A stretch of 64,000 nt of DNA from an uncultured Acidobacteriota bacterium (GCA_963700145.1 OY969474.1:640001-704000), one strand, 5' to 3'. Shown: positions 14,831 to 45,241, numbered from the stretch's first letter. The notes: a model not told the origin generated them from the letters alone. Numbers and translations are program-made.

Positions 14831-15124
14831 GACCCATCGGGTTCGCCCGCCGACCCACTCGGTTCGGCCGCGGATCCACTCGGTTCCGCCGCAGATCCAT
14901 TCAGTTCGGCCACGGATCCAGTCGGTTTCGCGGGTGATCCATTCGGTTCGGCCGCTGATCCATTCGCTTCGACCGCGGATCCACTGGGTTCGGCCGGTGA
15001 TCTACTCGGTTCAGCCGGTGATCCACTCGGTTCGGCTGCGGATCCAGTCGGTTCCGCTTTAGATCCAGTCGGTTCCGCCGTGGATCCACGGTGTTCGGCG
15101 GCCGACTCACCGGGTTCGCCCGCC
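14831..15124. repeat. Array A: 14 x 21-bp tandem units, GATCC-N4-GGTTC-N7
   Basis: Units start every 21 nt from 14831 to 15104, e.g. GATCC ACTC GGTTC GGCTGCG. Confidence 0.92.
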
Positions 15125-15132
15125 GCCCGTGT

Positions 15133-15138
15133 ATAATG
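15133..15138 (+). promoter_or_regulatory. Sigma-70 -10 box of the rpsF-rpsR-rplI operon
   Basis: TGTATAAT about 110 nt upstream of the rpsF ATG. Confidence 0.7.
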
Positions 15139-15183
15139 CGCCCCTCATTCGCCGCGGGCTGGCTCTGCCGGGCCCGCATCCCG

Positions 15184-15238
15184 TTCCTCTCTGCTCCGCG
15201 CCATCTCGCAGCGGGGCTGCCAGGCCATAGGGAGGTGC
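15184..15238 (+). promoter_or_regulatory. Putative S6:S18 autoregulatory leader
   Basis: CCTCTCTGCTCCGC...GCGGGGCTG...GGGAGGTG hairpin that could sequester the purine-rich SD-like tract upstream of rpsF; matches the general architecture of known S6:S18 leaders, not model-tested. Confidence 0.45.
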
Positions 15239-15249
15239 CTAGGAATCCC

Positions 15250-15666
15250 ATGCGTACCTATGAGTTGGTGTTCGTTGTCGATCCCCGTGTCACCGACGAG
15301 GAAGTCGTCGAGCTGACCGGGGAGTACAAGCAGATGCTCACTGGCGGGGGTCTCACCATCAACCGCGAGGAGAGCTGGGGCCGGCGCAAGCTGGCTTACC
15401 CGATCTCGAAGCTCACCGAAGGCAAGTACGTCGTCCTCTACCTCTCCAGCGAGAACGGGACACGGACCCTCGCCGACGTCGAGCACCGCATGAACCAGAA
15501 CGACAAGGTGCTGCGTTACCTCTCGGTGCGCACCGACCAGGACCTCAAGCGCGCGGGCAAGCCGCTGATCCCCGAGCCGACGGCCGAGACCAGCGCGCCT
15601 CCCACTGCCGAGGCCGTCGTCGCACCCGCCGCCCCCGAGGGCGGCCGGCCCGGAAGGGAGGAGTAA
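15250..15666 (+). CDS. rpsF: 30S ribosomal protein S6
   Basis: MRTYELVFVVDP, WGRRKLAYPI, VLRYL. Confidence 0.97.
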   Translation: MRTYELVFVVDPRVTDEEVVELTGEYKQMLTGGGLTINREESWGRRKLAYPISKLTEGKYVVLYLSSENGTRTLADVEHRMNQNDKVLRYLSVRTDQDLKRAGKPLIPEPTAETSAPPTAEAVVAPAAPEGGRPGREE

Positions 15667-15669
15667 GCC

Positions 15670-15966
15670 ATGCCACCACGCACAGGCGGCCGCGGACCAG
15701 GCGGCAGGGGAGCGGGCAAGGCGGGCGCCAAGGGCGCCAAGGGGAAGAAGGTCTTCTACCGCCGCCGCAAGGTCTGTAAGTTCTGCGCCGACAAGATCGA
15801 CTACGTCGATTACAAGGACGTCAAGCTCCTGGCGGGGTTCATCCCCGAGCGCTCGAAGATCCTGCCGCGGCGGATCTCCGGTACCTGCGCCCGCCACCAG
15901 CGGCTGCTGCAGCAGGGCATCAAGCGGGCGCGCCACCTGGCGCTGATCCCCTTCGCGACGGACTAG
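15670..15966 (+). CDS. rpsR: 30S ribosomal protein S18 (Zn-binding C+ type)
   Basis: RRKVCKFC, DYKDVKLL, KILPRRISGTCARHQR. Confidence 0.98.
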   Translation: MPPRTGGRGPGGRGAGKAGAKGAKGKKVFYRRRKVCKFCADKIDYVDYKDVKLLAGFIPERSKILPRRISGTCARHQRLLQQGIKRARHLALIPFATD

Positions 15967-15974
15967 GAGGGGAC

Positions 15975-16421
15975 ATGCGAGTCATCCTGATGAGCGACCA
16001 GCGCCACCTCGGCCGCCGCGGCCAGGTGGTCGAGGTCAAGCCCGGCTACGCGCGCAACTACCTGATCCCGCAGGGGCTGGCGCTGGAGGCGACGACCGCC
16101 AACAGCGCCTACTTCGAGCAGCAGAAGCACAAGATCGACGCCCGCCACCAGCGCGAGAAGGACGCCGCCGCAGAGGTGGCGACGCGGCTGGCCGGTTTGC
16201 GCCTCACCATCCCCAAGCGGGTGGGCGAGACCGACACCCTCTACGGCTCGGTGACCGCCGGCGAAGTGGCCGACCTGATCGCCAAGGAGGGGATCGAGGT
16301 GGACCGCCGGCGCATCGACCTCGAAGGCGGCATCAAGACCCTCGGCGACCACCCGGTGCGCGTCGAGCTCCACCACGACGTCGTCGCCGAGGTCACCGTC
16401 ACCGTCGTGCGGGCGGAGTGA
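15975..16421 (+). CDS. rplI: 50S ribosomal protein L9
   Basis: LGRRGQVVEVKPGYARNYLIPQG, LYGSVT, IKTLG. Confidence 0.98.
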   Translation: MRVILMSDQRHLGRRGQVVEVKPGYARNYLIPQGLALEATTANSAYFEQQKHKIDARHQREKDAAAEVATRLAGLRLTIPKRVGETDTLYGSVTAGEVADLIAKEGIEVDRRRIDLEGGIKTLGDHPVRVELHHDVVAEVTVTVVRAE

Positions 16422-17581
16422 GCGACGACCGGCCGCCCTCACTAGACGACTTCCTCACCGAGCCGACCCGCGACATCGACTCCTGGCGGTGGCTGTGGCG
16501 GGGGGACCGCGAGTTCCCCATCCGCAGCCACCGCGGTCTCCTCGGCCGCTTCCTGGTCGGCTGGAAGCGGCTCTTCCGCCCGCTGGTCAAGGTGCCCCAG
16601 AACGATCTCTGGGAGCGGCAGCGGGTCTTCAACCTCATCCTGCTCGACCATCTCGAGCGCGCCAAGGCCGTCGAGACCTGGCACGGCGCCCGGCTCCTGC
16701 CGCTCGAAGGCACGCTCGCCGAAGGCCTCACCGAGATCATGCGGCACAACGACGCGCTCTTCGCGCGCGTCGACCAGAAGCTCGACGGCTACCGCCGCGA
16801 GGCGCGCGACCTGCTGGGCAGCCTCGGCGCGGCGTTGGCCGCGCTGGAAGGCGGCGCGGCGCCGCCGCAAGAGACTCTCTCTCGCGCCCGCGAGGAGCAC
16901 GCCTACTTCGAGCTCGAGCGGCGCTACCGCGGCACCGAGGAGGAGATCGGCGAGCGGATCGCCCGCTACTTGCCGTACCTGGAAGGCAAGGACCCGGTGC
17001 TCGATCTGGGTTGCGGCCGCGGCGAGGCGCTGGCCCTGCTGCGCGACCGCGGCGTGGCGGCGCGCGGGGTGGACGCAAGCGAGCGCATGGTGGCCCTCTG
17101 CCGCGAGCGCGGGCTCGACGCCGCGGCCGGCGACCTTTTCGCGCACCTCGCGGCGGTGGAGGAGGGGAGCCTCGGCGCGGTCGTCTCCTTCCACGTCGTC
17201 GAGCACCTGCCGCCCGAGGCGCTCGACCGCCTCGTCCGCCTCGCCTGGCGGGCGCTCCGCCCCGGCGGGGTGCTGATCCTCGAGACCCCGAACCCGCTCT
17301 CCCTCGTCGTCGCCGCCCGCAACTTCTGGCTCGACCCGACGCACGTCCGCCCGGTCCACCCCGAGGCGCTGCAGCTCCTCCTCCAGCAAGCCGGCTTCGC
17401 CGCCGTCGAGCACCTGGAGCTCCGCCCCTTCGCCGACGCCGACCGCCTCCCCGAGATCGACCTCGCGACCCTCCCCCCCGAGCAGCACGAGCTCGCCGAC
17501 CGCGTCAACCGCCTCCGCGACCGCCTCGACGAGCTGCTCTTCGGGAGCCAGGACTACGCGGTAATCGGCACGAAGGGCTAG
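16418..17581 (+). CDS. SAM methyltransferase with N-terminal coiled coil (glycan chain-capping-like)
   Basis: ERRYRGTEEEI, VLDLGCGRGE, FHVVEHL, ILETPNP, FWLDPTHVRPVHP. Confidence 0.85.
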   Translation: MSDDRPPSLDDFLTEPTRDIDSWRWLWRGDREFPIRSHRGLLGRFLVGWKRLFRPLVKVPQNDLWERQRVFNLILLDHLERAKAVETWHGARLLPLEGTLAEGLTEIMRHNDALFARVDQKLDGYRREARDLLGSLGAALAALEGGAAPPQETLSRAREEHAYFELERRYRGTEEEIGERIARYLPYLEGKDPVLDLGCGRGEALALLRDRGVAARGVDASERMVALCRERGLDAAAGDLFAHLAAVEEGSLGAVVSFHVVEHLPPEALDRLVRLAWRALRPGGVLILETPNPLSLVVAARNFWLDPTHVRPVHPEALQLLLQQAGFAAVEHLELRPFADADRLPEIDLATLPPEQHELADRVNRLRDRLDELLFGSQDYAVIGTKG

Positions 17582-17587
17582 CGCCGA

Positions 17588-20158
17588 CTAGTTAGAAGCG
17601 GGCGGCGGCGGCTCGGCCGCCGGCGCCGGCTGGTCCGCGGGCGGCTCCTCGCCGCCGACCGGGGGCACCGCTTCGCCCTCCTCGACCGCCCCCGCCTCCG
17701 GTGCCGCGCCTTCGGTGGTGCCCGGTGGGGCCGCGCCCTCCGGGCCCTCCGGTGCGGGGCGCATCTCCTCCCCCTCCTTCGGGATGTAGAACGACTTCTG
17801 CTGATACCAGGGGAGGTTCAAGATCGAGTTCCACTCCGGGCCGTGCTGGCCGGAGGGCTCGGTGCCGGCGACGAAGGCTTCCCTCTGCCTGCGTTGGCTG
17901 CCGGCGCCGGGCAGGAGGCCGGTGTAGTACTCGACGTCGCGGGTGGTGACGCCGCCGGGAACGGAGAACTCCTCGCCCTTCGTCAGCCACCCCGTCCCGA
18001 GCCCGTCCTCGACGATGCCGCGCCACATCGGCAGCGCCGCCACCGTCCCGCTCATGCCGCCGCCGAGCGACTTCTTCACGTCATAGCCGACCCAGGTGAG
18101 GATCGTGTAGCGCGGCGTGAAGCCGACGAACCAGGCGTCGGAGAAGTCGTCGGTTGTGCCGGTCTTGCCGGCGATGTCGATCGGCAGGTCCTTGACCGGC
18201 GTCGCGGTGCCCTGGTCGACGACCCCTTCCATCATGTGGGTGAGGACGTAGGCCACCGCCGGGTCGGTCGCCGTGCGGGTGTTGGGGACGTGCTGCTCGA
18301 GGACCTGCCCCTCGGGGCTGGCGATGCGCTGAATCAGATAGGGCTCGATCCAGGTCCCCTGGTTGGCGATCGCGGCGTAGGCGGCGGCGAAGCTCAAGGG
18401 CGTCAGGTCGGCGGTGCCGAGGGCGAGGCTGGGGTAGGGAGGCAACGTCTGGTCGACGCCGCAGCGGCGGGCGAAGTCGATGACCCGGCGCACCCCGACG
18501 AGGTCGAGGAGCTTGACCGACGAGACGTTGAGCGACAGCTCCAGCGCCCGCCGCAGGGTGACGATGCCGTAGTACTTCCGGTAGTAGTTCTGCGGCCGGT
18601 AGGAAAGCCGCCCGTCGGCGCCGATGAAGACGGTGGGGGCGTCGAGGATCGTGTCGGACGGCGTCCAGCCGTTCTCCAGCGCGGCGCCGTAGACGAAGAC
18701 CTTGAAGGCCGACCCCGTCTGGCGCTTCGCCTGGGAGACGCGGTTGAACTTGTTGCGCTCGAAGTCCCAGCCGCCGACCATGCCGCGGACGGCGCCGCTG
18801 GCGTGCTCGATGACCACCGCCGCCGCCTCCATCCGCGGCTCCTGCTCGAGATAGAGGCGCGGCTCGGCGCCTTCCTTCGGCTTCCCCTTCTCCTTCGGCA
18901 CGTCGAGCCGGAACCAGGCCACGTCGCCCGGGTCGAGCAGCGAGTCCGGCCGGGTGCGGCCGGTCCAGCGGAAGCCGGCCGGCTCGAGGGTGTAGGTCCC
19001 CTTGTCGATCCGCACCGTCGCGGTCTTCGCCCCGGACTCCAGCACGATCCCCTGGTGCCAGCGGCCGACGGCCGGCTCGGCGCCGCTCCAGGAGGGGAGC
19101 GTCTGCTGCGCCGGGTCGCCCTCCAGCTCGGCGATCGGGCCGCGCCAGCCGCGGCGGTGGTCGAGCCGCGCCAGCCCTTCGCGCACCGCCTTCTCGGCCG
19201 AGCGCTGGATCGCCGGGTCGAGCGTCGTCTGCACCTGGAGGCCGTCCTCGTAGAGCGCATCGGCGCCGTAGGTGGCCTCCAGGTGCTTGCGCACGTCTTC
19301 GGCGAAGTACGGCGCGAAGGCCTGCTGCGGCTGCTGGCGCGAGACGAGGAGCGGCCGCGCCGCGGCGCGGTCGTAGGCGGGGCGGTCGATCATCCCCTCC
19401 TCGAGCATCCGCCGCAGCACGCGCTGGCGCTGGCTCAACACCACCTCCGGCCGGCGGTACGGGCTGTAGCGGCTGGGCGCCGGCAGGATGCCGACCAGCG
19501 TCGCCGCCTCGGCCAGCGTCAGCTTCGCCGCGGGCTTGCCGAAGTAGTAGCGCGAGGCGGCCTCGACGCCGTAGTTGCCGTGGCCGAAGTTCATCAGGTT
19601 CAAGTACATCGTCAGGATCTGCTGCTTGCTGAAGGTTTTCTCCAGCTCGACGGCCAGGAAGGCCTCCTCGATCTTCCGCCGCCAGACCTGCTCGCGCGAC
19701 AGGAAGAGGCTGCGCGCGAGCTGCATGGTGATCGTCGAGGCCCCCTCGACGACCTCGCCGGCGCGCAGGTCGGCCAAGGCGGCACGGCCGATGCCGAAGG
19801 CGTCGACGCCGCCGTGGCGGAAGAAGTTGCTGTCCTCCGAGGCCAGCACCGCGTTCTCGAGCACCTTGGGGATCTGCCCCTCCTCCAGCATCACCCGCCG
19901 CTCGCGCGCGAAGGTGGTGAAGACCTTCCCGTTGCGGTCGAGGAGCTGGGTGACGAGGCCGGGCGTGAAGTCGACGACCGAGTCGACGCGCGGCACGTGG
20001 ATCGCCGCGGCGAAGATGACGCCGCTGGCGGCGCCGAGGAGGAGCGCGCCGAGGAGCGGCCAAGCCCAGCGCAGGGCGCGGCCCGGCGGCAGCGTACGGC
20101 GGCGGCGCGGCGGGGCGGGGGGCGGACCGTGGGTGCGGCGCGGCGGGTCGTAGTCCAC
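17588..20158 (-). CDS. mrcA: Class A penicillin-binding protein 1A
   Basis: EDSNFFRHGGVD, GASTITMQL, RKIEE, QTGSAFK (SxxK), SLNV (SxN), KTGT; GTG start at 20158. Confidence 0.93.
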   Translation of the reverse strand: MDYDPPRRTHGPPPAPPRRRRTLPPGRALRWAWPLLGALLLGAASGVIFAAAIHVPRVDSVVDFTPGLVTQLLDRNGKVFTTFARERRVMLEEGQIPKVLENAVLASEDSNFFRHGGVDAFGIGRAALADLRAGEVVEGASTITMQLARSLFLSREQVWRRKIEEAFLAVELEKTFSKQQILTMYLNLMNFGHGNYGVEAASRYYFGKPAAKLTLAEAATLVGILPAPSRYSPYRRPEVVLSQRQRVLRRMLEEGMIDRPAYDRAAARPLLVSRQQPQQAFAPYFAEDVRKHLEATYGADALYEDGLQVQTTLDPAIQRSAEKAVREGLARLDHRRGWRGPIAELEGDPAQQTLPSWSGAEPAVGRWHQGIVLESGAKTATVRIDKGTYTLEPAGFRWTGRTRPDSLLDPGDVAWFRLDVPKEKGKPKEGAEPRLYLEQEPRMEAAAVVIEHASGAVRGMVGGWDFERNKFNRVSQAKRQTGSAFKVFVYGAALENGWTPSDTILDAPTVFIGADGRLSYRPQNYYRKYYGIVTLRRALELSLNVSSVKLLDLVGVRRVIDFARRCGVDQTLPPYPSLALGTADLTPLSFAAAYAAIANQGTWIEPYLIQRIASPEGQVLEQHVPNTRTATDPAVAYVLTHMMEGVVDQGTATPVKDLPIDIAGKTGTTDDFSDAWFVGFTPRYTILTWVGYDVKKSLGGGMSGTVAALPMWRGIVEDGLGTGWLTKGEEFSVPGGVTTRDVEYYTGLLPGAGSQRRQREAFVAGTEPSGQHGPEWNSILNLPWYQQKSFYIPKEGEEMRPAPEGPEGAAPPGTTEGAAPEAGAVEEGEAVPPVGGEEPPADQPAPAAEPPPPASN

Positions 20159-20195
20159 GCGTGGATTATAGGGAGTCGTGGTACAAAGAGCGGCG

Positions 20196-22308: not shown

Positions 22309-22342
22309 AAATGCCACCCTAGCATTTCTTGGGGCGACCGCT

Positions 22343-23071
22343 TCAGGAGCAGTCGAAGGCGCTGGTGTCGGCGAAGAGCTCCGGCACCACGTGGAGCGGC
22401 TTCGAGTAGGTCTTCACCGCCCCGGTGCGGATGTCGCGCACGGTGATCTCGTAGCGCACCGTCGAGGCGGGGGAGAGGAAGACCCAGTAGTGGCCGTTCA
22501 CCGCGCAGCCGTCGAGGACCTTGACCAGCATCTCCGGGTTGTCCTGCCCGAAGAACCAGAGAGTCCCCCAGTCGCCCAGGCCGTCGAAGTCGTCGGGCAT
22601 GGTGTGCGCGACGCCGTCGTTGCTGTCGAAGTCGGTCCACTCGGCGGTCACCTCGAACCGGCCGTCGAGGCAGAGGGCGGTGTCGGTGGCGTCGCAGGCC
22701 GGGGACGGCTTGACCTCGAAGAGCTGGAAGTCGAGCAGCACGGACGTGCCTTCCGCGCGCACCTGCACGGCGTAGGTGCCGGCGGCGAGCGGCCCCACGT
22801 TGACGCTGGCGGTGTACTCCACCGGACCGATGGGGATGACGGGGCAGCCGGGATCGGTCACCACGAGGCTGATCGTGTCGAAGGCGATGCTCTGGACCGC
22901 CAGCGTGCCGACGTCCTCGCAGGCGATCGCGACGCCGTGGAAGGTGATGGTGAACGTCTGCCCGGCCACCGGCGGGGAAGGGGAGAAGGTGATTTCGGTC
23001 GCCGCGGCGCCCGTGGACACCGCGAGAAGGAGGGACACGAGGGTGAAGGAACGGACGATCGAAGTCTTCAT
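22343..23071 (-). CDS. Secreted protein, tandem paralogue 2
   Basis: MKTSIVRSFTLVSLLLAVSTGAAA; C-terminal ~105 aa nearly identical to paralogue 1. Confidence 0.8.
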   Translation of the reverse strand: MKTSIVRSFTLVSLLLAVSTGAAATEITFSPSPPVAGQTFTITFHGVAIACEDVGTLAVQSIAFDTISLVVTDPGCPVIPIGPVEYTASVNVGPLAAGTYAVQVRAEGTSVLLDFQLFEVKPSPACDATDTALCLDGRFEVTAEWTDFDSNDGVAHTMPDDFDGLGDWGTLWFFGQDNPEMLVKVLDGCAVNGHYWVFLSPASTVRYEITVRDIRTGAVKTYSKPLHVVPELFADTSAFDCS

Positions 23072-23142
23072 ATATGCCACGATAGCATTTCCGGGAGCCG
23101 CCGGCCAAGCTCCGCGCCACGCGGGTAAGCCTCCCATCGCTC

Positions 23143-23550
23143 TGGAAAGCCTCCCCGACGGCGAGGGGCAGCTCCCGGGCGCTGCGGAAAGCCTCCCACA
23201 GAGCCGGGGCGAGCTCTCGGTCGCTCCGGGAAGCCTCCCGGATGGCCGGGTCGAGCTCCCTGCCGCTCCGGGAGTCCGCACTCAGACGCCGGGCGAAGGT
23301 CCACGCGCCTCGTCCGGGCTCCCGAGCGTTCGGTCCAAGCACCCCGGGCCCGCGGGCGAGCTCCCAACCGCCTCGAACACCCGCACTCGCGCCTCGTCCA
23401 AGCGCACCCGGTCACGGGGAAGACTCCCCGCGCGACGGGGAACGTTCCCCGCGTCGTGGGACACACTCCCCCGGCGATGGGGAGCACTCCCCGTGCGGCG
23501 GGAAACGCTCCCCGAGCCGCGGGGAGCATTCCTCAGGTCGTGGGATGCAT
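23143..23550. repeat. Array B, left part: 21-bp units GGGGA-N4-TCCCC-N7 (degenerate toward the left)
   Basis: Clear units at 23416, 23437, 23458, 23479, 23500, 23521, 23542; in-phase degenerate units at 23143-23248 and 23353. Confidence 0.85.
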
Positions 23551-23624
23551 CCCTCTCTGCCAACATCCGGTGAGACAGGAGAGCGTGCTCGAAATAGGGT
23601 AGAGGGCGGAGAGAGGCGAAGGCG

Positions 23625-24158
23625 ATGAAGCGAGGGTTGGAGAGGCAGGATGGATGGGGGGTCCAGGGGACGGAGGCAGGGGTCGGCGGGGAGGGTGGGG
23701 AGGCCGGGGGCGGGGGAGGAGCGGCCTCCCCACCCTCCCCGCCGACGCGGATCCGTTCTGGGCCCGGGAGTCCGCTTCCAGATCCCGAGGTCGAGCCTAA
23801 GGCCCAGCGGCGCCAGTTTTCGGCCGCCTACAAGCTACGCATCCTCGAGCAGGCCGACCGTTGCCAGGGTCGCGGCGAGATCGGCGCTTTGCTGCGGCGC
23901 GAAGGACTGTACGCCTCCCACCTCGGCCGGTGGCGCGCCCTGCACCGGCAGGGTGGCGCCGTAGCCCTCGGCCGTCCGCGCGGGCGCAAGCCCGACCCCG
24001 ACACGGTCTTGCGCGAGCAGCTGCGCCGGCTCGAGCGCGACAATCGGCGCCTGCAGCGCGCGCTCCAGCAGGCCGAGACCATCCTCGAGGTGCAAAAAAA
24101 ACTCTCGGAGGTGCTGGGCATCCGCCTGACCGCACCCGAGGAGGAGACGAGCGCGTGA
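23625..24158 (+). CDS. IS3 transposase OrfA (HTH plus coiled coil)
   Basis: RRQFSAAYKLRILEQAD...GALLRREGLYASHL; CAAAAAAAAC at 24093-24102 is a -1 frameshift motif; start may be slightly downstream. Confidence 0.85.
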   Translation: MKRGLERQDGWGVQGTEAGVGGEGGEAGGGGGAASPPSPPTRIRSGPGSPLPDPEVEPKAQRRQFSAAYKLRILEQADRCQGRGEIGALLRREGLYASHLGRWRALHRQGGAVALGRPRGRKPDPDTVLREQLRRLERDNRRLQRALQQAETILEVQKKLSEVLGIRLTAPEEETSA

Positions 24159-25165
24159 GCGCTGTGCCCATGCTGGCCGAGCGCGTCGGGGTCCAGAGGG
24201 CCTGCGAGGCTCTGGGTGTGCCGCGCTCGTCGCTGTACCGTCACCGCAGCCAGGCCCGCGCCGGGCCCCGGCGGCTGCCGCCGGCCCGACCGACACCGGC
24301 GCGCGCCCTCAGCGCGAACGAGCGCCGGCAGACGCTGGAGATTCTCCATAGCCCGCGCTTCGTCGACGCCTCCCCGGCTCAGGTCCACGCCACCCTGCTC
24401 GACGAAGGCCACTACCTCTGCTCGGTGCGCACCATGTACCGCCTGCTGGCGCGCCAGGGGGAGGTGCGGGAGCGACGCCACCAGCTGCGCCACCCTCTCT
24501 ACCGCAAGCCCGAGCTCTTGGCCACCGGCCCCAACCAGGTCTGGTCCTGGGACATCACCAAGCTCCGCGGGCCGGCCAAGGGGATCCACTACAGCCTCTA
24601 CGTGGTGCTCGACATCTTCAGCCGCTACGTCGTCGGCTGGCTGCTGGCCGAACGCGAGAGCGAGCTGCTCGCCCAGCGTCTCCTCGCCGAGACCGTCGCC
24701 AAGTATCCCGTGGTCGCGGGCGAGCTGACGCTGCACGCCGACCGCGGCCCGAGCATGACGTCGAAGTCGGTGGCCCAGCTACTGGCCGACCTCGGAATCC
24801 TCAACAGCCACAGCCGCCCTCACACCAGCAACGACAATCCCTACTCCGAGGCCCAGCTCAAGACCCTGAAGTACCATCCGCTGTTTCCCGATCGCTTTGG
24901 CTCGCTCGAGCACGGCCGGCTCTTCTGCTGCGGCTTTTTCCCCTGGTACAACCACCAGCACCACCACTCCGGCCTGGCGCTGCTGACCCCCGCCGACGTC
25001 CATTTCGGCCGCGCCCCCGAGATCCTCGCCCGCCGCGCCGACGTCCTCCGTGCGGCCTACGCCGCCCACCCAGAACGCTTCCACCGCGTACCCCATCCCC
25101 GGCAGCTGCCCCAGGCCGTCTGGATCAACCCACCCCAGGAGGACACCCCGACGAAACTTCCCTAA
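24155..25165 (+). CDS. IS3 transposase OrfB (DDE integrase core)
   Basis: PNQVWSWDITKL, LDIFSRYVVGW, LHADRG, SNDNPYSEAQLKTLKY. Confidence 0.92.
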   Translation: MSAVPMLAERVGVQRACEALGVPRSSLYRHRSQARAGPRRLPPARPTPARALSANERRQTLEILHSPRFVDASPAQVHATLLDEGHYLCSVRTMYRLLARQGEVRERRHQLRHPLYRKPELLATGPNQVWSWDITKLRGPAKGIHYSLYVVLDIFSRYVVGWLLAERESELLAQRLLAETVAKYPVVAGELTLHADRGPSMTSKSVAQLLADLGILNSHSRPHTSNDNPYSEAQLKTLKYHPLFPDRFGSLEHGRLFCCGFFPWYNHQHHHSGLALLTPADVHFGRAPEILARRADVLRAAYAAHPERFHRVPHPRQLPQAVWINPPQEDTPTKLP

Positions 25166-25209
25166 TTTCTCTCTGAACTCTGTCTCAACGGGCTTGACAG
25201 GCTCCGCAT

Positions 25210-25340
25210 TCCCCACCTCGCGGGGAGCGGTCCCCGTCCGATGGGGAGCACACCCCGGCCGGCGGGGAACACTCCCCGGCTCAGGGGGAGTGGTCCCCAG
25301 GCGCCGGACCGGATTTCCCAGCTCGCGGGACGCTTTCCCG
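25210..25340. repeat. Array B, right part (continues after the IS)
   Basis: TCCCC at 25210, then units at 25222, 25243, 25264, 25285, 25306, 25327. Confidence 0.85.
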
Positions 25341-25345: not shown

Positions 25346-25573
25346 TCAGACCGCCCGGGCGACCAGCCGCCCCGCCCGCACCTCGACCTCGTAGGCTTGC
25401 CCCAGGTCGAATCCGGCCGCCTGCAGCCACCGCCCGGACAGCCGCAGGTCCGGAAACCTCTCCCTCCTGCTCCAGCGGCCGCACACCGTCCCCGAGCGCC
25501 GCCCCGCGGCGCGCGCCTTCCGCGCGCTCTCTCTTTCGCTCCTCTCGCCCTTTCCGCTCCACGGCCGCGGCAA
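25346..25573 (-). CDS. symE: SymE-family type I toxin-like protein
   Basis: FPDLRLSGRWLQAAGFDLGQAYEVEVRAGRLV; start uncertain. Confidence 0.75.
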   Translation of the reverse strand: MPRPWSGKGERSERESARKARAAGRRSGTVCGRWSRRERFPDLRLSGRWLQAAGFDLGQAYEVEVRAGRLVARAV

Positions 25574-35855: not shown

Positions 35856-35864
35856 GAGAGACCG

Positions 35865-36521: not shown

Positions 36522-36527
36522 CGATTC

Positions 36528-36590: not shown

Positions 36591-36644
36591 CGGCGCCGGC
36601 GCCGTTGCAGGCGAGAGTGCCGTCCAACCACGGAGGCCCCCGCC

Positions 36645-38332: not shown

Positions 38333-38356
38333 GGACAAGGGTCCGAGGCGGAGGTG

Positions 38357-38394
38357 AGTTCCGCAAGTCCTGCAGGATGAAGCTGTCGATCGTG
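38357..38394. repeat. 38-bp copy of an internal segment of the porin gene (40408-40445)
   Basis: AGTTCCGCA(A/G)GTCCTGCAGGATGAAGCTGTCGATCGTG, 37/38 identical, same orientation. Confidence 0.85.
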
Positions 38395-38430
38395 CAAGAG
38401 CAGATTTGCTCCCGGTGCGCCGACTCCGCC

Positions 38431-39978
38431 ATGCTGAGGCACCCGGAGCCGTCCCGCTTGATCCCCTCACCGCCTTCCGACCACGCGCTTTCCCTCGAGC
38501 GCGAGATCGCGGCCTTCGAGGCGCTCAAGCCACGGCTCCTCGAAGTCTGGGACGCGCTCACCCTTCGCGACCACGCGGAGCACACGTCGGTGGTGGTGCC
38601 CTCCCTGACGCTCGACCAGGAGGATCTGCAGAACCTCGCCGGCGCCAGCTACTACGAGGAGCGGTTGCTCTTCCTGTTGATCCGCCTGCGCAACCCCCGG
38701 GCCCGGGTCGTCTACGTCACGTCCCAGCCGATCCATCCCGACGTCCTCGAGTACTACCTCCAACTCCTCGCCGGCATCCCGGCCAGCCATGCCCGCGCGC
38801 GGCTGACCCTGCTCTGCGCGCACGACGCCTCGCCCCGCTCGCTCACCGAGAAGGTCCTCGAGCGCCCCCGCTTGATCGAGCGGATCCGGCGGGGGATACC
38901 CGACTGCTCGCGCGCCTATCTGACGGTCTTCAACTCGACACCGCTTGAGCGGCGGCTGGCGGTGCTGCTCGGCATTCCGCTCAACGGCTGCGATCCGGCG
39001 CTCGCCCACCTCGGCTCGAAGTCCGGTTCGCGCCGGGTGTTTCGCCGGGCGGGGGTATCCCTGCCGGCGGGGTTCGAGGACCTCCACGACCGCAGCGAGA
39101 TCGAGGAGGCGCTCGCGGCGCTCGGCCGCGAGCGGCCGGGGCTCCGGCGAGCCGTGCTGAAGCTGGACGACAGCTTCTCCGGGAAGGGGAACGCGCTCGT
39201 GCGCCTGCCGGCGGCAGGGGGTCGCGACGCGCTGCGGCGGGCCGTCGACCGGCTCGAATTCACCGTCCCGGGCGAGAGCAGCGATGACTACTTCACGAAG
39301 TTCTCGCGGATGGGCGGCGTCGCCGAAGAATTCATCGAGGGCCTGGACAAGACGGCGCCGAGTGCGCAACTGCGCATCGATCCGCGCGGCGAGGTCGTGC
39401 CGCTCTCGACACACGACCAGGTGATGGGCGGGCCCGGCGGCCAGGTCTTCCTCGGCTGCACGTTCCCGGCACGTGACGAATACCGCGGTGCCGTGCAGGA
39501 CGCGGCTGCCAAGATCGGCACGGTCCTCAGCGCCGAGGGCGTGGTGAGCCGCTTCGGCGTTGACTTCCTCGCCTGGCGCGAAGCCGCCTCACCCGCCTGG
39601 CGCCTGGCGGCGCTCGAGATCAACTTGCGCATGGGCGGGACCACGCATCCGTTTCTGGCGCTCCAGTTCCTCACCGGCGGCGCGGTCGACCCGGCGACCG
39701 GCGTCTTCTACGCGCCGAGCGGCAAGCCGAAGTTCTACCGGGCGACGGACAACCTGGAGAGCCCCAGGTACCGCGGGCTGCTGCCCGAGGACCTCATCGA
39801 CATCCTGACGATGAACGGGCTGCACTACGACTACGCCTCGGAGTCCGGCGCGCTCTTCCACCTGCTCGGCGCGACCTCCGAGTTCGGCAAGCTCGGCATG
39901 GTCGCCATCGCCAGCTCGCGCGGGGAGGCGGATGCCGTCTACGAGCAGGCGCTCGCGGTCCTCGACCGCGAGGCCTAA
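38431..39978 (+). CDS. PGM1-related peptide-ligase-type ATP-grasp protein
   Basis: VVVPSLTLD, YEERLLFLL, GSKSGSR, LSTHDQV.GG, EINLRMGGTTHPF; start 38377 or 38431. Confidence 0.8.
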   Translation: MLRHPEPSRLIPSPPSDHALSLEREIAAFEALKPRLLEVWDALTLRDHAEHTSVVVPSLTLDQEDLQNLAGASYYEERLLFLLIRLRNPRARVVYVTSQPIHPDVLEYYLQLLAGIPASHARARLTLLCAHDASPRSLTEKVLERPRLIERIRRGIPDCSRAYLTVFNSTPLERRLAVLLGIPLNGCDPALAHLGSKSGSRRVFRRAGVSLPAGFEDLHDRSEIEEALAALGRERPGLRRAVLKLDDSFSGKGNALVRLPAAGGRDALRRAVDRLEFTVPGESSDDYFTKFSRMGGVAEEFIEGLDKTAPSAQLRIDPRGEVVPLSTHDQVMGGPGGQVFLGCTFPARDEYRGAVQDAAAKIGTVLSAEGVVSRFGVDFLAWREAASPAWRLAALEINLRMGGTTHPFLALQFLTGGAVDPATGVFYAPSGKPKFYRATDNLESPRYRGLLPEDLIDILTMNGLHYDYASESGALFHLLGATSEFGKLGMVAIASSRGEADAVYEQALAVLDREA

Positions 39979-40314
39979 CGGTCCCGCCGCACCTCGCGGT
40001 CGACGCGGTCGACGAAGCGGCACCAGCCAGACCGGCACTGCGGCCAGCGGCAGCAGGACGGCGAAGACCAGCCGGTCCCCGAAGCGGTCGGCCAGCATGC
40101 CGGCCGGGAGGCGCCCGACCGCGCCCAGGAGGACGGGCAGGGCGACGAGCAGGGCGGTGCGCGTGGCGCTGAGCGCGAAGAGCTCGCGGAAGCGCGGCGC
40201 GAAGGCGCCGATCAACCCCCAGGCGGCGAAGGAGACGGCGAACGAAACGGTGGCGAGGGCGAGATGGCGGACCGAGGACGAGGCCGGCTGGGTGGCGGCG
40301 GCGGTCGACGTTAC
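39975..40314 (-). pseudogene. Collapsed second copy of the nitrate reductase operon (narK 5-prime end fused to the last codons of the DUF6755-like gene)
   Basis: 40018-40314 closely matches 34111-34404; 39975-40017 matches 28564-28606 (FVDRVDREVRRDR*); GTG start changed to GTA. Confidence 0.88.
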
Positions 40315-40321
40315 GGCACCG

Positions 40322-42613
40322 TCAGAAGGCCAGTGTCAGGTCGAGCATGAAGATGTCGGCCTGGTAGTCGCCGTTGTCGGCATTGAGCAGCAGCGCGCCC
40401 GGCAGGTAGTTCCGCAGGTCCTGCAGGATGAAGCTGTCGATCGTGTAGTCCTCGTGGCGGTAGGTGAACCCCGCCTCGGCGCTCTCGGCGATGCGGTAGT
40501 CGAGCCGGCCCTGGAGGGCGAAGAGCTCGATGTCCTCGTAGTTGGGCAGGTCGATCGGCGCCGTGCGCGTGCCGAGCGGCAGGCCGCCGGGGACGGCGAA
40601 GAAGTCGGCGAAGCCGTCGGATTCCGTCCAGTTCCCCGAGACGTCCGCCGTCCAGCCTTCGGCGAAGCGGCTGGTCAGGCCGAGGCCCCAGGTGTCGTTG
40701 ACCTCGTCGAAGTCGATCGACCAGTCGTCGATCGGCCGCGTCGAGGGGGCGGCGCCCGACTGCCGGCCGCGCTGGGAGACGTCGCGGTCGGCGCGGTGGC
40801 CGAAGAGGTAGAAGTTGAGCTTCTCGCCCGGCGCGTAGGAGACCTCGGCGTTGTACTGGATCACCTCGTCGGCGAGGAGGCCGTGCGCGCTCTCGTCGTA
40901 CTCCTCGTCGCGGCCGGTGACGCCCGCGGTGAAGGTCCAGGCGTCGGTGGGGTAGAAGTCGGCCAGGAGCCGCCACTGGTCGTACTCCCGCGCCGCCTGC
41001 GCGTACTTGCGCAGCCCGGGCTGGTTGTTGGCCCCTGCGGGGTCGCCGAAGCTCGCCTCCTGCGCCTCGACGTCGTAGCCGTCGATCGAGCGGTCGGCGA
41101 TCTCGTAGCTCGCCCGGAGGTTGAGGCGGCGGGTCGGCCGGGTGTCGAAGCTCAGGGTCACGACGTCCTCGTCGGAGCCCTCCACCTCGCGGAACTCGCG
41201 GTCCCAGGTCTGGCGCCGGTAGGCCAGCCCCAGGCTGCTGTCGCGGAAGACCTCCCAGTCGAGGTCGAAGCCGAGGTCCTGGCGGGTGTAGGCATAGGGC
41301 ACGGTGACGCGCGGGATCTCCTCCCAGACCGAGTGGAAGCGGACGTAGCCGGGGAACTCGATCCGCGGCGAGCGGTTGTCGTAGTCGTAGTAGCGGTAGC
41401 GGAAGACCAGCGACACGTCCTCGCCGACGCGCGTGCCGACGTCGCCGTTGAGCGCCAGCACCTGCACCTCGGTGTCGGCGTTGCGCACCGGCAGGTTGGC
41501 GGGGTCCGTGGCGTCGAAGGTGGCGTGGGTTTGCAGGTCGACGCCGCGGATCGCGCTGTTGAGGGTGTAGGGCAGCAGCGGCTCGTCCTGGGTCATGAGG
41601 TTGTACGAGGCGCTGCCGCTCGCCCACCAGTCCCCGGCGAAGCGGGCGCGGCCGTCGGCGAAGACCACGCTCGAGCGGTTGTCGGGCGACAGGTCGGCGA
41701 AGCCGCGGGCGGCGCCGTTGATCGACGAGCTGCTCGGCGACTGGTAGGCGTTGGCGTCCGTCGAGTCGGTCGCCCGGAACGGGTTGTCCCAGAAGAGAGT
41801 GCTGACGTCGTTCTGGAAGGTCGAGTGGCGGACGCCGAAACGCGCCCCGCCGCGCTCGCCCTTCCACTCGCCGGCCAGCTCGGCCCCGGTGGTGTCGTAC
41901 TCGATCGGCTCCGGCAGCTCGGTGACGTTGTTGAAGCCGAACGAGGCGCCGTAAGGGCGGTTGCCGCTGCGGTTCTCGTGCGTGTACTCGATCCCCCAGG
42001 CGAGCCGCCCCATCTTGCCGAGGTCGAGCCGCGCCGCCGTGCGGTCGCGCCGCAGGCCCAGGCTCACCTCCTGCTCGGCGGCGAGGTAAGGAGCCAGCAC
42101 CTGGTCGAGAAAGGCGAAGGTGACGCCGGTGCGGTTGGCGGTGAACTGCTGCTGCACGGCGCCCTGGATCGCCGCCTGCACCGGGTCGGCGATCTCGTAG
42201 ACGCCGGGGCCGGTCCGGCTCCAGAGCATGCGGCCGCCGTTGCCGAAGCGGTGGGGGATCTTGTTGTAGTCGAGCCGCAGCTCGTAGCGTCCGGAGAGGC
42301 CGTAGGCGAGGGTGTAGCGGGCGTCCTCGCGGCCGATGCGGGCGGCGGCGAAGTCGAAGGTGCGGTTGTGGTCGGCGCTCTCGCCCTCGACGTCGAGGGA
42401 GGCGAGGAAGCCGCTGCCGAGGTCGCGGTACTCCTCGAACTTGGCCGAGTCGGTGTCGACGTCGGTCTCGAGCACGGCGAAGACGAGCGGATCGACGCGG
42501 AAGGTGAACCCCTGCGCCGCGGCGTCCTGGGCCGCGGCCGGCGCGGCGGCGGCGAGGCAGAAGAACCCGGCGAGGACGGCGGCGGCCTGCGACTTGATCG
42601 TGCGGGCGTCCAT
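40322..42613 (-). CDS. MtrB/PioB-family outer-membrane beta-barrel
   Basis: Signal peptide; SAKFEEYRD, LPEPIEYDT, LFWDNPF; C-terminal Phe; adjacent to a decahaem cytochrome. Confidence 0.88.
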   Translation of the reverse strand: MDARTIKSQAAAVLAGFFCLAAAAPAAAQDAAAQGFTFRVDPLVFAVLETDVDTDSAKFEEYRDLGSGFLASLDVEGESADHNRTFDFAAARIGREDARYTLAYGLSGRYELRLDYNKIPHRFGNGGRMLWSRTGPGVYEIADPVQAAIQGAVQQQFTANRTGVTFAFLDQVLAPYLAAEQEVSLGLRRDRTAARLDLGKMGRLAWGIEYTHENRSGNRPYGASFGFNNVTELPEPIEYDTTGAELAGEWKGERGGARFGVRHSTFQNDVSTLFWDNPFRATDSTDANAYQSPSSSSINGAARGFADLSPDNRSSVVFADGRARFAGDWWASGSASYNLMTQDEPLLPYTLNSAIRGVDLQTHATFDATDPANLPVRNADTEVQVLALNGDVGTRVGEDVSLVFRYRYYDYDNRSPRIEFPGYVRFHSVWEEIPRVTVPYAYTRQDLGFDLDWEVFRDSSLGLAYRRQTWDREFREVEGSDEDVVTLSFDTRPTRRLNLRASYEIADRSIDGYDVEAQEASFGDPAGANNQPGLRKYAQAAREYDQWRLLADFYPTDAWTFTAGVTGRDEEYDESAHGLLADEVIQYNAEVSYAPGEKLNFYLFGHRADRDVSQRGRQSGAAPSTRPIDDWSIDFDEVNDTWGLGLTSRFAEGWTADVSGNWTESDGFADFFAVPGGLPLGTRTAPIDLPNYEDIELFALQGRLDYRIAESAEAGFTYRHEDYTIDSFILQDLRNYLPGALLLNADNGDYQADIFMLDLTLAF

Positions 42614-42626
42614 GACGTCCTCCCCC

Positions 42627-43583
42627 CTAGTGCGCCAGGTACGGCGCGGACGGGTGGTTGCTGCCGTGGATCGCGGCGTGGCAGTCCAGGCAGGCCCGGT
42701 TGAAGACGCGGTTGCTGCCGCGCGCCGGGTCCTCGAGGGTCGGCACGCGCAGGCCGTCGTAGAGGGTCCCGGGGTGGCGGGTGTTGGCGTGGCACTGCTG
42801 GCACAGGTACGGCACCGACGTCTTCTGCAGCTTCAAGTGGTTCGAGCCGTGCGGCGTGTGGCAGTTGAGGCAGCTCTCGCGCACCGGCGGGTGGTCCCAG
42901 AGGAACGGCCCGCGCTTCTCGGTGTGGCAGGAGTAGCACTGGTCGTTGACCGAGGCGGCGCGGATCAGCTTCGGGGTCGAGGCGCCGTGCGGGTTGTGGC
43001 AGTCGGAGCAGGAGATCTTCCCCTCGCGGATCGGGTGGTGGGAGTTCTTCCAGGTCTCGGCGCGGACGTCCTTGTGACAGGCGAAGCACTGCTCGGCGAC
43101 GGTGGCCGTCTTGAGCTGCGCCTGCTCGGTCTTGGGCGCATGGACGCTGTGGCAGGAGATGCAGGAGAGGCCGCGCATCTGATGGCGGCTGCCCTGCCAG
43201 AACATCTGCTGGCCGCCGTCGTGGCAGGTGCGGCAGACCGCGACCTGCGCCGGGACGCTCAGGCGGTCCACGCGGGGGTGGAGCGCCGGGTCGTCCGGGT
43301 TCTCGGCGTGCGCGGCGCCCGGGCCGTGGCAGGTCTCGCACCCCAGGTCCGAGAGGCGCGCGAACGCGGCCTTGCCGTGAGGCGTGCCGGCGAGGTGCGT
43401 GGCTTCGGCGTCGTGGCAGGCGGCGCAGGTCTCGGCGCCGGCGTAACCCGGCGCCGCCGCCGCGTGCGCGGGCGCCAGTGGCGGCTCGGGGGGTTCCTGC
43501 TGCCGGGGGGCGGCGCTGCTGCCGGAAGCGGCAGCGAGGAGCGCGCCGGCGGCGACCGGGACCAACAGGTAGGGAAGCCTCAT
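42627..43583 (-). CDS. DmsE/MtrA/MtoA-family periplasmic decahaem cytochrome c
   Basis: Ten CxxCH motifs (CAACH, CETCH, CRTCH, CISCH, CFACH, CSDCH, CYSCH, CLNCH, CQQCH, CLDCH); EKRGPFLWDH; IHGSNHPS. Confidence 0.93.
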   Translation of the reverse strand: MRLPYLLVPVAAGALLAAASGSSAAPRQQEPPEPPLAPAHAAAAPGYAGAETCAACHDAEATHLAGTPHGKAAFARLSDLGCETCHGPGAAHAENPDDPALHPRVDRLSVPAQVAVCRTCHDGGQQMFWQGSRHQMRGLSCISCHSVHAPKTEQAQLKTATVAEQCFACHKDVRAETWKNSHHPIREGKISCSDCHNPHGASTPKLIRAASVNDQCYSCHTEKRGPFLWDHPPVRESCLNCHTPHGSNHLKLQKTSVPYLCQQCHANTRHPGTLYDGLRVPTLEDPARGSNRVFNRACLDCHAAIHGSNHPSAPYLAH

Positions 43584-43660
43584 CGGGCCCTCCTCCCGCT
43601 TCGCGGGTCGGACGTCCAAGAACGACGAGACCATCTTTCGCGCCGCCGGGCTCGCGCGCC

Positions 43661-43701
43661 ACGACTCCCGGGGTAGTTTCCTTCCCTACCCGCCAGGGTG
43701 G
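43661..43701. promoter_or_regulatory. Putative response-regulator sites in the divergent cytochrome promoter
   Basis: CTACCCGCCAGGGTGG (43686) and a GGGGTAG half-site 25 bp upstream. Confidence 0.55.
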
Positions 43702-43770
43702 GATCGAGACCGAGCAGTTGGTTCTAGAATAGCTCCAAACGGATCGATTGCAACCGCGAAAGGGGCGACC

Positions 43771-44130
43771 ATGAAAGCCACCCTCGTCCTCGCCGGCGCC
43801 GTCTCGGCGCTGCTCCTGGCCTTCGCCCTCTCGACGCCCGCGACGGCCGCCGCCCAGGCCAAGCTCGACGGCAAGGCGATCTTCCTGGCCCAGAAGTGCA
43901 GCCTCTGCCACGACGTCTCGTCGGCGGCCATCACCGCGACGGTGAAGTCGGCGGCGATGAAGGGCCCCGACCTGACGGGCAAGGCGAGCAAGCGCGACGC
44001 GACGCTGCTCAACAACTACCTGCGCAAGAAGGCCGACATCAACGGCAAGAAGCACAAGAAGGAGTTCAGCGGCAGCGACGAGGAGATCGGCGCCCTGATC
44101 GCGTGGCTGCAGGCGCAGGAGAAGAAGTAA
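43771..44130 (+). CDS. Periplasmic monohaem cytochrome c
   Basis: Signal peptide; CSLCH; GPDL; Lys-rich. Confidence 0.88.
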   Translation: MKATLVLAGAVSALLLAFALSTPATAAAQAKLDGKAIFLAQKCSLCHDVSSAAITATVKSAAMKGPDLTGKASKRDATLLNNYLRKKADINGKKHKKEFSGSDEEIGALIAWLQAQEKK

Positions 44131-44140
44131 GGCCGCGGGC

Positions 44141-44755
44141 ATGCCCTTCTTCGCGGAAGTCCTCGCGGTCTTTACTCTGGTCACCATCGCCCTGGCGGCG
44201 CTGGTAGCCCTCCGTCCGGCGCTGACGGCGGCGCGCGGCGGCAAGGTCCTGGCCTTCCTCGCCCTGCTGGTGCTGCCGCTGGCGATGACGGCCCTCGGGG
44301 TGTCGGCGCACGTGGAGCGCTCCAAGTCGACGGAGTTCTGCCTCTCCTGCCACGTCATGGAGCCGTACGGCAAGAGCCTGCGGGTGGACGACGCCAGCTT
44401 CGTGCCGGCCAGCCACTACCAGAACAACCGTGTGCCGCGCGACAAGGCCTGTTTCACCTGCCACACCGACTACACGATGTTCGGCGACGCCAAGGCGAAG
44501 CTGCGCGGCCTGCGGCACGTCTACGTGTACTACCTGGCCGGGGCGCCGGAGAAGATCGCGCTCTACGAGCCGTACAACAACCGCGAGTGCCTGCACTGCC
44601 ATGCCGGCGCGAGGAGCTTCGAGGAGAGCGAGCTGCACGTGGAGATCCGCGACGAGCTACGCACGAGCCAGACCTCCTGCCTGGAGTGCCACGACATGGT
44701 CCACGAGGTGGACCAGCTCGCCGGCAAGCCGTTGTGGAAGGTGGCCCGCCGGTGA
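44141..44755 (+). CDS. NapC/NirT/CymA-family membrane tetrahaem cytochrome c
   Basis: Two TM; STEFCLSCHVM, CFTCH, CLHCH, CLECH. Confidence 0.9.
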   Translation: MPFFAEVLAVFTLVTIALAALVALRPALTAARGGKVLAFLALLVLPLAMTALGVSAHVERSKSTEFCLSCHVMEPYGKSLRVDDASFVPASHYQNNRVPRDKACFTCHTDYTMFGDAKAKLRGLRHVYVYYLAGAPEKIALYEPYNNRECLHCHAGARSFEESELHVEIRDELRTSQTSCLECHDMVHEVDQLAGKPLWKVARR

Positions 44756-44958
44756 CCGCCGCCGAGTCGCTGCTCGCGCGCCGCTTCAAGATCGCCGCGG
44801 TGCTGGTGTCGGTCGGCCTGGCGATCGAGGCGCTGACCCTCTTCTGGGCCCACCCCACGGCCTTCCTCGCCTTTCTCCTGATCGGCGGCACCCTCGTCGC
44901 CGCCGGCGTGCTCCTCTACCTCTACTCGATCGTCAGCTACACGACCCCGCCGCGGTAG
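44752..44958 (+). CDS. Small two-TM membrane protein
   Basis: GTGA overlap; GLAIEALTLFWAHPTAFLAF. Confidence 0.65.
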   Translation: MTAAESLLARRFKIAAVLVSVGLAIEALTLFWAHPTAFLAFLLIGGTLVAAGVLLYLYSIVSYTTPPR

Positions 44959-45014
44959 GCGGCGCCGAGCGCTCGGGCCGCGTCGCGAGCTAGTGCTCGC
45001 CGCCCGCCGCCGAG

Positions 45015-45241
45015 GTATCGACCGCCGATACTGACGTATCAGCGGCTGATACGAAGGTATCGGGCGGTGATACGGGCGGAGCGGGGCCTGATACGGGCGT
45101 ATCGACCGGCGATACGGACGTATCCGCGCCTGATACCGAGGTATGAGGGCTCGATACGCAGGTATCAAGACTCGATACGTGCGTATCGGCGGCTGATACG
45201 GGCGTGTCAGCGGTTGATACGGAGGTATCAAGCGCTGATAC
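45015..45241. repeat. Array C: 10 full 21-bp units GATAC-N4-GTATC-N7 plus flanking half units
   Basis: GATAC every 21 nt from 45027 to 45237. Confidence 0.93.

Follow-up and report, generated by a model that had tools for sequence, protein, structure and literature searches.

Three intergenic stretches of tandem DNA in a 64,000-nucleotide segment of the chromosome of an uncultured Acidobacteriota soil bacterium (GCA_963700145.1 OY969474.1:640001-704000; hereafter the window, with positions counted from its first nucleotide) raise the question of why repeats with different core sequences should share one spacing. The initial annotation of the window described these stretches, here called arrays A, B, and C, as inverted pentamers in one exact 5-4-5-7 geometry with a 21-bp period, and suggested a possibly undescribed class of helically phased elements. 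The three arrays are not special to the window and are members of a genome-wide population of more than 100 arrays. With roughly even confidence, they are a distinct variant of satellite-like noncoding DNA of the repetitive extragenic palindromic (REP) and bacterial interspersed mosaic element (BIME) kind, with rapid turnover in tolerated intergenic space.

The window arrays were read directly, run through Tandem Repeats Finder (TRF), and scanned for their core patterns (at most 1 mismatch) with shuffled controls. The following elements were delimited, array B being interrupted by an insertion sequence (IS).

14831..15124, no strand: array A, fourteen 21-bp units, 13 of which match GATCC-N4-GGTTC (at most 1 mismatch), with degenerate edge units
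23137..23293, no strand: left part of the span first annotated as array B, occupied by a different array built from 42-bp double units of the GGAAAGCCTCCC / GGGGCGAGCTCCC type
23414..23550, no strand: left block of array B, GGGGA-N4-TCCCC units, the final unit (GGGAT-GCAT) being interrupted by the IS
25206..25340, no strand: right block of array B, GGGGA-N4-TCCCC units in the same 21-bp register as the left block
45012..45241, no strand: array C, ~10 units of GATAC-N4-GTATC-N7

TRF made period-21 calls at 14840-15089 (11.9 copies), 23414-23532, 25221-25289, and 45027-45241 (10.2 copies). GATCC-N4-GGTTC occurred 13 times in array A, at each 21-bp step from 14831 to 15083, and 17 times window-wide against 4.9 expected, a count reached in 0 of 100 shuffles. 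GATAC-N4-GTATC had 9 matches in 21-bp steps from 45027 to 45216 (0.23 expected). GGGGA-N4-TCCCC was found at five sites to the left of the IS (23416, 23437, 23479, 23500, and 23521) and four to the right (25222, 25243, 25264, and 25285), all nine in one 21-bp register. Three arrays with different cores on a 21-bp period (13, 9, and 9 units) were thus confirmed by reading, TRF, and scans with shuffles. The inverted pentamers held for the cores of B and C and only approximately for A, where the arms form an imperfect inversion (GATCC versus GGTTC) with a conserved central T/T mismatch. The interruption of array B also held, but the span 23143-25340 attributed to it proved composite, consisting of the 42-bp array at 23137-23293, a degenerate stretch, units at 23414-23545, the IS at 23551-25205, and units at 25206-25340. 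A dyad axis every 10.5 bp follows arithmetically because a palindromic unit is repeated with an odd period, and as such it adds no independent observation.

Column conservation was 0.95, 0.95, and 0.96 in the arms of A, B, and C, respectively, compared with 0.77, 0.62, and 0.68 in the N4 positions and 0.71, 0.60, and 0.59 in the N7 positions. Conservation ran in blocks of five, and no codon-phase pattern was seen in the columns of the three arrays.

The window sits in a single 5.46-Mb contig with 71.5% GC. Across this genome, 554 of 1977 TRF rows had period 21, followed by periods 18 and 15 with 217 and 180 rows, respectively. Of the arrays that reach 100 bp, 77 had a base period of 21, 25 a base period of 42, and 15 a base period of 20; every other period accounted for 9 or fewer. 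In total, 133 arrays of at least 84 bp (period 20, 21, 22, 42, 63, or 84) made up 26,189 bp, and 116 of them lay outside gene calls, which were GC3 based (GC content at third codon positions) and covered 69% of the genome. The units run head to tail, with 714 of 909 successive spacings equal to 21 bp and 133 equal to 20 bp, and higher-order units of 42, 63, and 84 bp are present. Other long tandem repeats look intragenic or are clustered regularly interspaced short palindromic repeat (CRISPR) arrays. The genome-wide scan that the initial annotation had proposed therefore bears out a real and abundant class of 21-bp-period repeats. A CRISPR identity for this class was rejected; its units abut without spacers, and bona fide CRISPR arrays are found at another location (periods of 76 to 83 bp, genome C1:1078565-1093367, with a repeat unit beginning GTCGCAATCCCTCC). 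The 21-bp arrays were evenly spread along the chromosome (chi-square test, P = 0.68), with no position bias or clustering seen. Cumulative GC skew rose near-monotonically from a minimum at 20 kb to a maximum at 5.28 Mb, with no clear two-replichore shape, origin, or terminus.

Translation of the arrays into conserved heptad-repeat peptides was considered, since 21 is divisible by 3 and the arrays in this GC-rich DNA are crossed by long open frames. Best-phase GC was 0.73 in arrays versus 0.94 in genes, and the arrays are therefore noncoding; furthermore, variation follows blocks of five rather than each third base, the arrays tolerate 20-bp variants as well as the loss and gain of units, and the great majority of arrays fall outside gene calls. 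Heptad-repeat peptides can accordingly be all but dismissed.

Ninety of the 133 arrays were evaluated for a dyad against column shuffles (P at most 0.05); of the other 43, the consensus was 20 or 22 nt long in 27, and the remaining 16 lacked a row of period 20 to 22 or did not reach 3 units. A significant dyad was found in 53 of the 90, with loops of 0, 2, 4, or 6, and no significant dyad in the remaining 37. The stem/loop classes included 5/2 and 2/0 (8 arrays each), 4/4 and 2/4 (6 each), and 5/4, 6/0, 6/2, and 4/0 (5 each). One exact 5-4-5-7 geometry is thus contradicted genome-wide. The general feature is the period, not the loop.

Unit sequences nevertheless fell into related groups. Pairs of unit consensuses sharing at least 15 of 21 positions numbered 210, versus 7 after shuffling, and linked the arrays into components of 35, 19, 8, 6, and fewer members. 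Array A grouped with partly nonpalindromic TGGGTC/GAATGGG units, array C with GGTACC-type units, and array B with one other array; the GGAAGCTTCC type is a further array type alongside types A and C. CCGG was enriched (39 of 90 units versus 20 expected). Exact GATAC-N4-GTATC sites lay within masked arrays in 24 of 26 cases, at least one of the other two belonging to a short array of the same units, and isolated operator-like copies of the cores upstream of regulator genes were not found in the genome. Arrays of the GAAGCTTCCCTTTTGAAAAGC family occur at genome C1:137619, 275434, 603068, 1196014, 1445412, and 1501901, as well as in the closest relative, G004 (L067:636-914). Their units carry two AT-rich palindromes ~10.5 bp apart with phased A/T tracts, and DNA with phased A-tracts should be strongly curved.

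These results bear on whether A, B, and C are three unrelated slippage arrays that share a period and a palindromic look by coincidence. Direct similarity between their units is limited (A-C, 13 of 21 positions; A-B, 10 of 21; B-C, 9 of 21), and 165 of 4005 shuffled pairs reach 13, as coincidence would allow. The excess of period 21 is genome-wide and lineage-wide, however, more than half of the evaluated arrays have a significant dyad, and each of the three belongs to a multilocus family, which makes coincidence very unlikely.

Array turnover was examined at orthologous loci, beginning with locus A, where the array lies between the following two genes.

14269..14829, + strand: peptidyl-tRNA hydrolase gene (pth; PF01195, E = 9.9e-54), with its stop 2 nt before array A
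15250..15666, + strand: ribosomal protein S6 gene (rpsF; PF01250), with its start ~125 nt past the end of array A

Both genes were present at the loci of 11 of 19 relatives. In G004 (pth 97% identical), locus A has 4 units instead of 14, exactly 210 bp less, and the unit at the junction looks as if recombined from units 2 and 12. The spacers of the other 10 relatives were 126 to 257 bp long and contained no 21-bp units. In two soil metagenome studies, contigs connect 14813 with 15121 through 24 other letters, array A being absent, and one further metagenome contig carries the array. G003, a member of the same genus, was array-less at all five loci examined (A, B, C, 1579226, and 5104413), with gene content that differs as well at loci B and C. 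G004 retains arrays at 1579226 (10 units, versus 12 full units and a degenerate edge unit here), 5104413 (13 versus 13), and 2570351; at its locus B, it has different gene content and an array of another family, and no array lies beside its flank of the 25-copy array at 1581836. The presence-absence comparison at orthologous loci, also proposed in the initial annotation, shows fast turnover, with arrays kept at some loci in the closest relative and at none of the five in G003. Empty alleles keep approximately one unit-like remnant or seed, and comparison of filled with empty alleles gave no clean target-site duplication or mobile-element boundary. Separately from the arrays, an ~220-bp multicopy repeat resembling miniature inverted-repeat transposable elements (MITEs) was noted at L074:7302-7522 (genome C1:2571302-2571522), with matches at ~20 places in G004 and ~8 in G003 (76 to 93% identity).

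The colinear pair of arrays at 5104413 (13 orthologous units here and in G004) differs at 73 of 273 positions, within an adjacent 1 kb that is 91.3% identical. Loop differences (30 of 52 positions) include many that represent one change repeated in several units, and the arms (inner positions) differ at 2 of 78. Judged from these alignments, array evolution is concerted and severalfold faster than that of the flanks, while the arms are held tighter than coding DNA. Different cores on one spacing had been thought hard to explain by simple slippage. That difficulty falls away, because concerted loop change with retained arms, together with chains of related consensus families, means that descent with homogenization explains different cores on one period.

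The satellite-like reading of the REP/BIME kind, to which we assign about an even chance, works as follows. The lineage-wide population has a unit of 21 bp, sometimes 20 bp and often doubled to 42 bp, and most units carry a short dyad with two 4- to 7-bp arms and a loop of 0 to 6 bp, followed by a GC-rich linker. Arrays gain and lose whole units in register and are homogenized internally, with loops changing in concert, arms kept, and linkers drifting, and they appear and vanish at loci within the divergence time of species in one genus. On this reading, they would be maintained chiefly as DNA that propagates itself or is tolerated, in gaps where little harm results. The 5-4-5-7 arrangement common to A, B, and C would represent variants of one inherited 21-bp unit plan and no special geometric law. 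Constraint on the arms would act on units, through recognition by a protein or other machinery or through the capacity for amplification, and any host role, whether as dyad rows on one DNA face or as fold-back at mRNA 3' ends, would be secondary.

Several observations weigh against this reading. At 5104413, the arm differences compare with 8.7% in the flank; the arms change less than neighboring coding DNA, which therefore indicates purifying constraint and is not predicted by a purely neutral satellite. Hairpin-driven amplification cannot be general, since 37 of the 90 evaluated arrays are without a significant dyad, and the arms of array A keep their central mismatch. Few neighboring units are exact duplicates of each other (18 at L = 21), and recent slippage is therefore not evident; outside long arrays, only 3 exact 21-bp tandem duplications were found, and no 21-bp duplication bias was seen genome-wide. 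No mobilizing enzyme or dispersal route was found in a Y1/REP-associated tyrosine transposase (RAYT) search of the genome and in 16 array flanks. The Y1/RAYT transposase profile PF01797 matched nothing in the single-contig genome, which is 95% complete, the control having matched in 6 of 14 genomes, and by-eye comparison of the flanks of 16 arrays from three families showed no common leader, tail, or terminal inverted repeats. Finally, the 21-bp arrays in a Bacteroidetes metagenome-assembled genome (MAG), described below, hint that 21 bp has some physical or mechanistic basis, which satellite-like turnover does not supply.

The constraint on the arms is also what a host function would predict, in which the units are sites for a dimeric protein on one face of the helix and the arrays serve as nucleoid-structuring, supercoil-insulating, or titrating platforms. 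Arms constrained beyond the flanking genes, with loops and linkers free, give the pattern of half-sites around an uncontacted center, and the conserved mismatch in array A is more readily understood as sequence recognition than as pairing. Wobble-type single changes show no strand bias (98 G-T versus 96 A-C), and array orientation is unbiased with respect to transcription (P = 0.22), although with n = 18 this comparison is underpowered. Further support comes from other phyla. Species-representative genomes were scanned for two adjacent C-type units, which were found at 18 loci in other phyla, most of them two-site pairs resembling operators. GATAC-N4-GTATC-N7-GATAC-N4-GTATC pairs, that is, an operator-like 5-4-5-7-5-4-5 arrangement, lie between divergent genes in Pseudonocardiaceae, other Actinomycetota, and Gemmatimonadota (L136, L138, L139, L140, L141, and L148). 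The neighbors checked at three pairs were a TetR-family regulator with a major facilitator superfamily (MFS) transporter (L139), an MFS transporter, and ChrB (L138), and from their sequence and setting the two-site pairs are likely repressor operators. Two of the contigs recovered, L145 from a Thermoanaerobaculia MAG and L147 from a Limnocylindria MAG, are identical over 164 nt around the match, which may reflect binning cross-assignment. Against protein docking, the arrays have more than ten cores with loops of 0 to 6, and one protein cannot read them all; the cores are almost never isolated outside arrays; no array is kept at a locus beyond the closest relatives; 15 period-20 arrays lose helical phase; and the arrays are spread evenly on the chromosome. 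We consider a docking platform a live but rather improbable alternative.

Array location and predicted folding were examined for a role in RNA, in which the arrays would be 3' untranslated structures that protect upstream mRNA or stop or attenuate read-through, as in REP/BIME. Among 63 arrays with both neighboring genes called nearby, 17 had convergent neighbors against 8.5 expected (P = 0.0035) and 9 had divergent neighbors against 14 expected, and in tandem gene pairs the median distance to the upstream stop was shorter than that to the downstream start; arrays are thus overrepresented at the 3' ends of genes and in gaps flanked by convergent genes. Predicted RNA folds beat shuffles for array C (z = -9.5) and array A (z = -4.0), and double changes in paired arm positions within the 53 dyad arrays were mostly compensatory (80 versus 18, counted as cells and not events). 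The minimum-energy fold predicted for A and C, however, is a long fold-back and not a series of unit hairpins, which, together with the mismatched arms of array A, also speaks against the trains of small RNA hairpins suggested at the outset. The within-array shuffle control for pairing was weak (z = 2.3), single changes show no G-U versus A-C asymmetry, and a nonpalindromic family is present in both orientations (3 versus 5). Some arrays, such as that at 1579226, lie between divergent genes. There was no Rfam match to the arrays, with one tRNA the only hit at gathering score in the whole 64-kb window, and scanning around A and C for consensus promoters and terminators gave no hit. Six RNA runs accounted for at most 9% of words; the two examined (X15 and X16) gave short contigs on conserved genes only, and one 56-nt RNA piece fell on array A at ~90% identity, possibly deriving from another array. 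A primary role at the RNA level is unlikely on this balance.

The distribution of the period across lineages was assessed by running TRF on 400-kb samples of four relatives. In G010, from another genus of the same family, ~17 places had 20-, 21-, or 40- to 42-bp arrays with still other cores, and ~6 such places were found in G006, also of the same family. The samples of G025 and G028, from other families of the order, contained no 21-type arrays. Arrays of this type, whose lineage enrichment the initial annotation had proposed to test, were thus found in samples of two other genera of the family. G028 instead carries ~eight tandem arrays (L092-L107) with a 63- to 68-bp unit of two GC-rich hairpins. 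Outside the phylum, the Bacteroidetes MAG contained an 11.9-copy 21-bp array of the GATAC-N4-GTATC-N7 unit and two more 21-bp arrays within 8 kb.

A further proposal is a two-helical-turn ruler, in which a protein or a repair or recombination mechanism would build, select, or maintain 21-bp units irrespective of their sequence. It is favored because the period is conserved across genera while cores change, because arms are constrained more than flanking genes, and because arrays of this kind, one of them with the GATAC-N4-GTATC-N7 unit, occur in the Bacteroidetes MAG. We regard such a ruler as doubtful. If true, it would amount to a bacterial satellite chromatin, with rows of dyads on one DNA face read by dimeric proteins.

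Returning to the satellite-like reading, the arrays also proved to be places where an IS resides.

23551..25205, + strand: IS3-family insertion sequence, 1655 bp (HTH_Tnp_1, rve, and rve_3)

This IS was inserted in the N4 loop of a GGGAT-GCAT-TCCCC unit, with a 4-bp duplication of GCAT at 23547-23550 and 25206-25209. The IS plus the duplication measures 1659 bp, or 79 x 21, so that the array register is kept across it; with a 1-in-21 chance, this is probably coincidence. Two of the four IS copies in the genome lie in palindromic arrays, one exactly in the loop, and a third lies in a CRISPR array. The copies at genome C1:1703972-1705612 and 1091111-1092752 are those in a 42-bp palindromic array, near the dyad center, and in the CRISPR array. 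For arrays covering 0.9% of the genome, two of four copies is unlikely by chance (binomial estimate, P of ~0.0005, or ~0.005 counting non-genic DNA only). IS3 and IS256 family elements have been reported to target REPs (PMC1525189).

The neighborhoods of arrays B and C contain the following features.

25346..25573, - strand: SymE-like small open reading frame (ORF; PF08845, E = 8.4e-12), with its stop ~6 nt from the right end of array B
45242..45276, no strand: GC-rich perfect inverted repeat of 35 nt, directly after array C

On its other side, array B adjoins the start of an unassigned minus-strand gene at 22343-23137. SymE-like proteins are type I toxin-antitoxin components with an AbrB fold, and the locus is variable, G004 having ~1.4 kb of other sequence there. 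Array C, which lies downstream of a NapC/NirT-type cytochrome gene, begins ~54 nt past a stop at 44956-44958, and a convergent OsmC-like gene faces it. A GTCCTCCGC-GAGGAC hairpin similar to the inverted repeat follows a sister C-family array (genome C1:2192480 onward), and the GTCCTCCGC-GAGGAC palindromes after two C-family arrays could represent either a tail common to both or a hairpin element in its own right. The annotated position just downstream of a stop codon was upheld for all three arrays, at 2 nt for A, ~6 nt for B (to the minus-strand SymE-like ORF), and ~54 nt for C. The claim that A and B end at the next promoter was not, as the consensus scan gave no promoter; a GTGTATAAT motif, GTGTA(T/C)AAT, lies at ~15129-15137 between array A and the S6 gene, and it is conserved in array-less relatives.

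Bacterial genomes are usually thought to be poor in satellite DNA. Here, nearly all noncoding tandem DNA, ~130 arrays, has one unit length, a rule that extends across genera despite sequence change. The arrays offer a compact natural system for the birth, homogenization, and loss of bacterial tandem arrays, and they allow one to ask whether helical phase, or a protein reading helical phase, sets repeat length. For strain typing in metagenomes, they provide hypervariable markers; insertion sequences reside in them, and short-read assembly and binning may handle them poorly.

Among known systems, REP/BIME elements are the closest comparison. They include the clustered GTAG-1 repeats with 5-bp stems of Thauera sp. 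MZ1T (PMC3733652), and their features are short extragenic palindromes in high copy, subfamilies with alternative complementary stems, frequent tandem arrangement, and a preference for 3' ends. The arrays share these features, with 116 of 133 outside gene calls and 53 of 90 having a significant dyad, and they harbor an IS3-family element, IS3 and IS256 family elements sitting in REPs (PMC1525189). REP systems differ in having a GTAG/CGTC tag and a Y1/RAYT gene, neither of which was found here; in the 90 unit consensuses, GTAG occurred 2 times (12.1 expected) and CGTC 13 times (20.1 expected), without enrichment. The arrays are also strictly head to tail with a fixed 21-bp period, whereas REP units are mostly head-head or tail-tail dimers according to PMC3733652, and a third of the arrays are not palindromic. 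That no named family matches, as first suspected, was corroborated by the empty Rfam search, the absence of REP tags and a RAYT gene, and the literature: no description of 21-bp or two-helical-turn bacterial intergenic arrays was found, although the supplements of PMC3733652 and PMC1525189 might list related cases, and no relevant title stood among those listed for Thermoanaerobaculia repeats.

The arrays are also minisatellites, or variable-number tandem repeats, in that units run head to tail, copy number varies between close relatives, and empty alleles occur in metagenomes. BrickBuilt of Porphyromonas gingivalis, a 23-nt intergenic minisatellite inside a MITE (PMC4596501), is similar in its intergenic position, unit of approximately two helical turns, lack of spacers, and multiple loci per genome. 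It differs in having leader and tail subunits, inverted-repeat ends, and one sequence family, compared with the many core families here.

Sites for DNA-binding proteins offer a second comparison. The two-site arrangement of tandem helix-turn-helix repressor operators in TetR-family/MFS divergons, GATAC-N4-GTATC-N7, is identical to that of array C. Such operators occur as one or two sites at promoters by a regulator, whereas the arrays have 6 to 25 units, mostly at 3' ends, and GATAC/GTATC sites in this genome lie almost entirely in arrays; an assignment to tandem repressor operators was therefore rejected. In plasmid F sopC, parC, and iterons, tandem direct repeats, some with an inverted repeat, are bound by helically phased proteins. 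The arrays share tandem direct repeats and helically phased spacing with these systems, which differ in occupying a single locus by partition or replication genes and in having one cognate protein. A plasmid-type iteron or centromere was likewise rejected, the arrays occupying more than 100 chromosomal loci with neighbors such as pth and rpsF, a SymE-like ORF, a cytochrome gene, and an OsmC-like gene.

Eukaryotic satellites show concerted evolution and higher-order repeats. The arrays differ from them in being 0.1 to 0.5 kb each, in residing on a bacterial chromosome, and in having palindromic units, but they share internal homogenization, higher-order units, a library of related families, and rapid turnover between close relatives.

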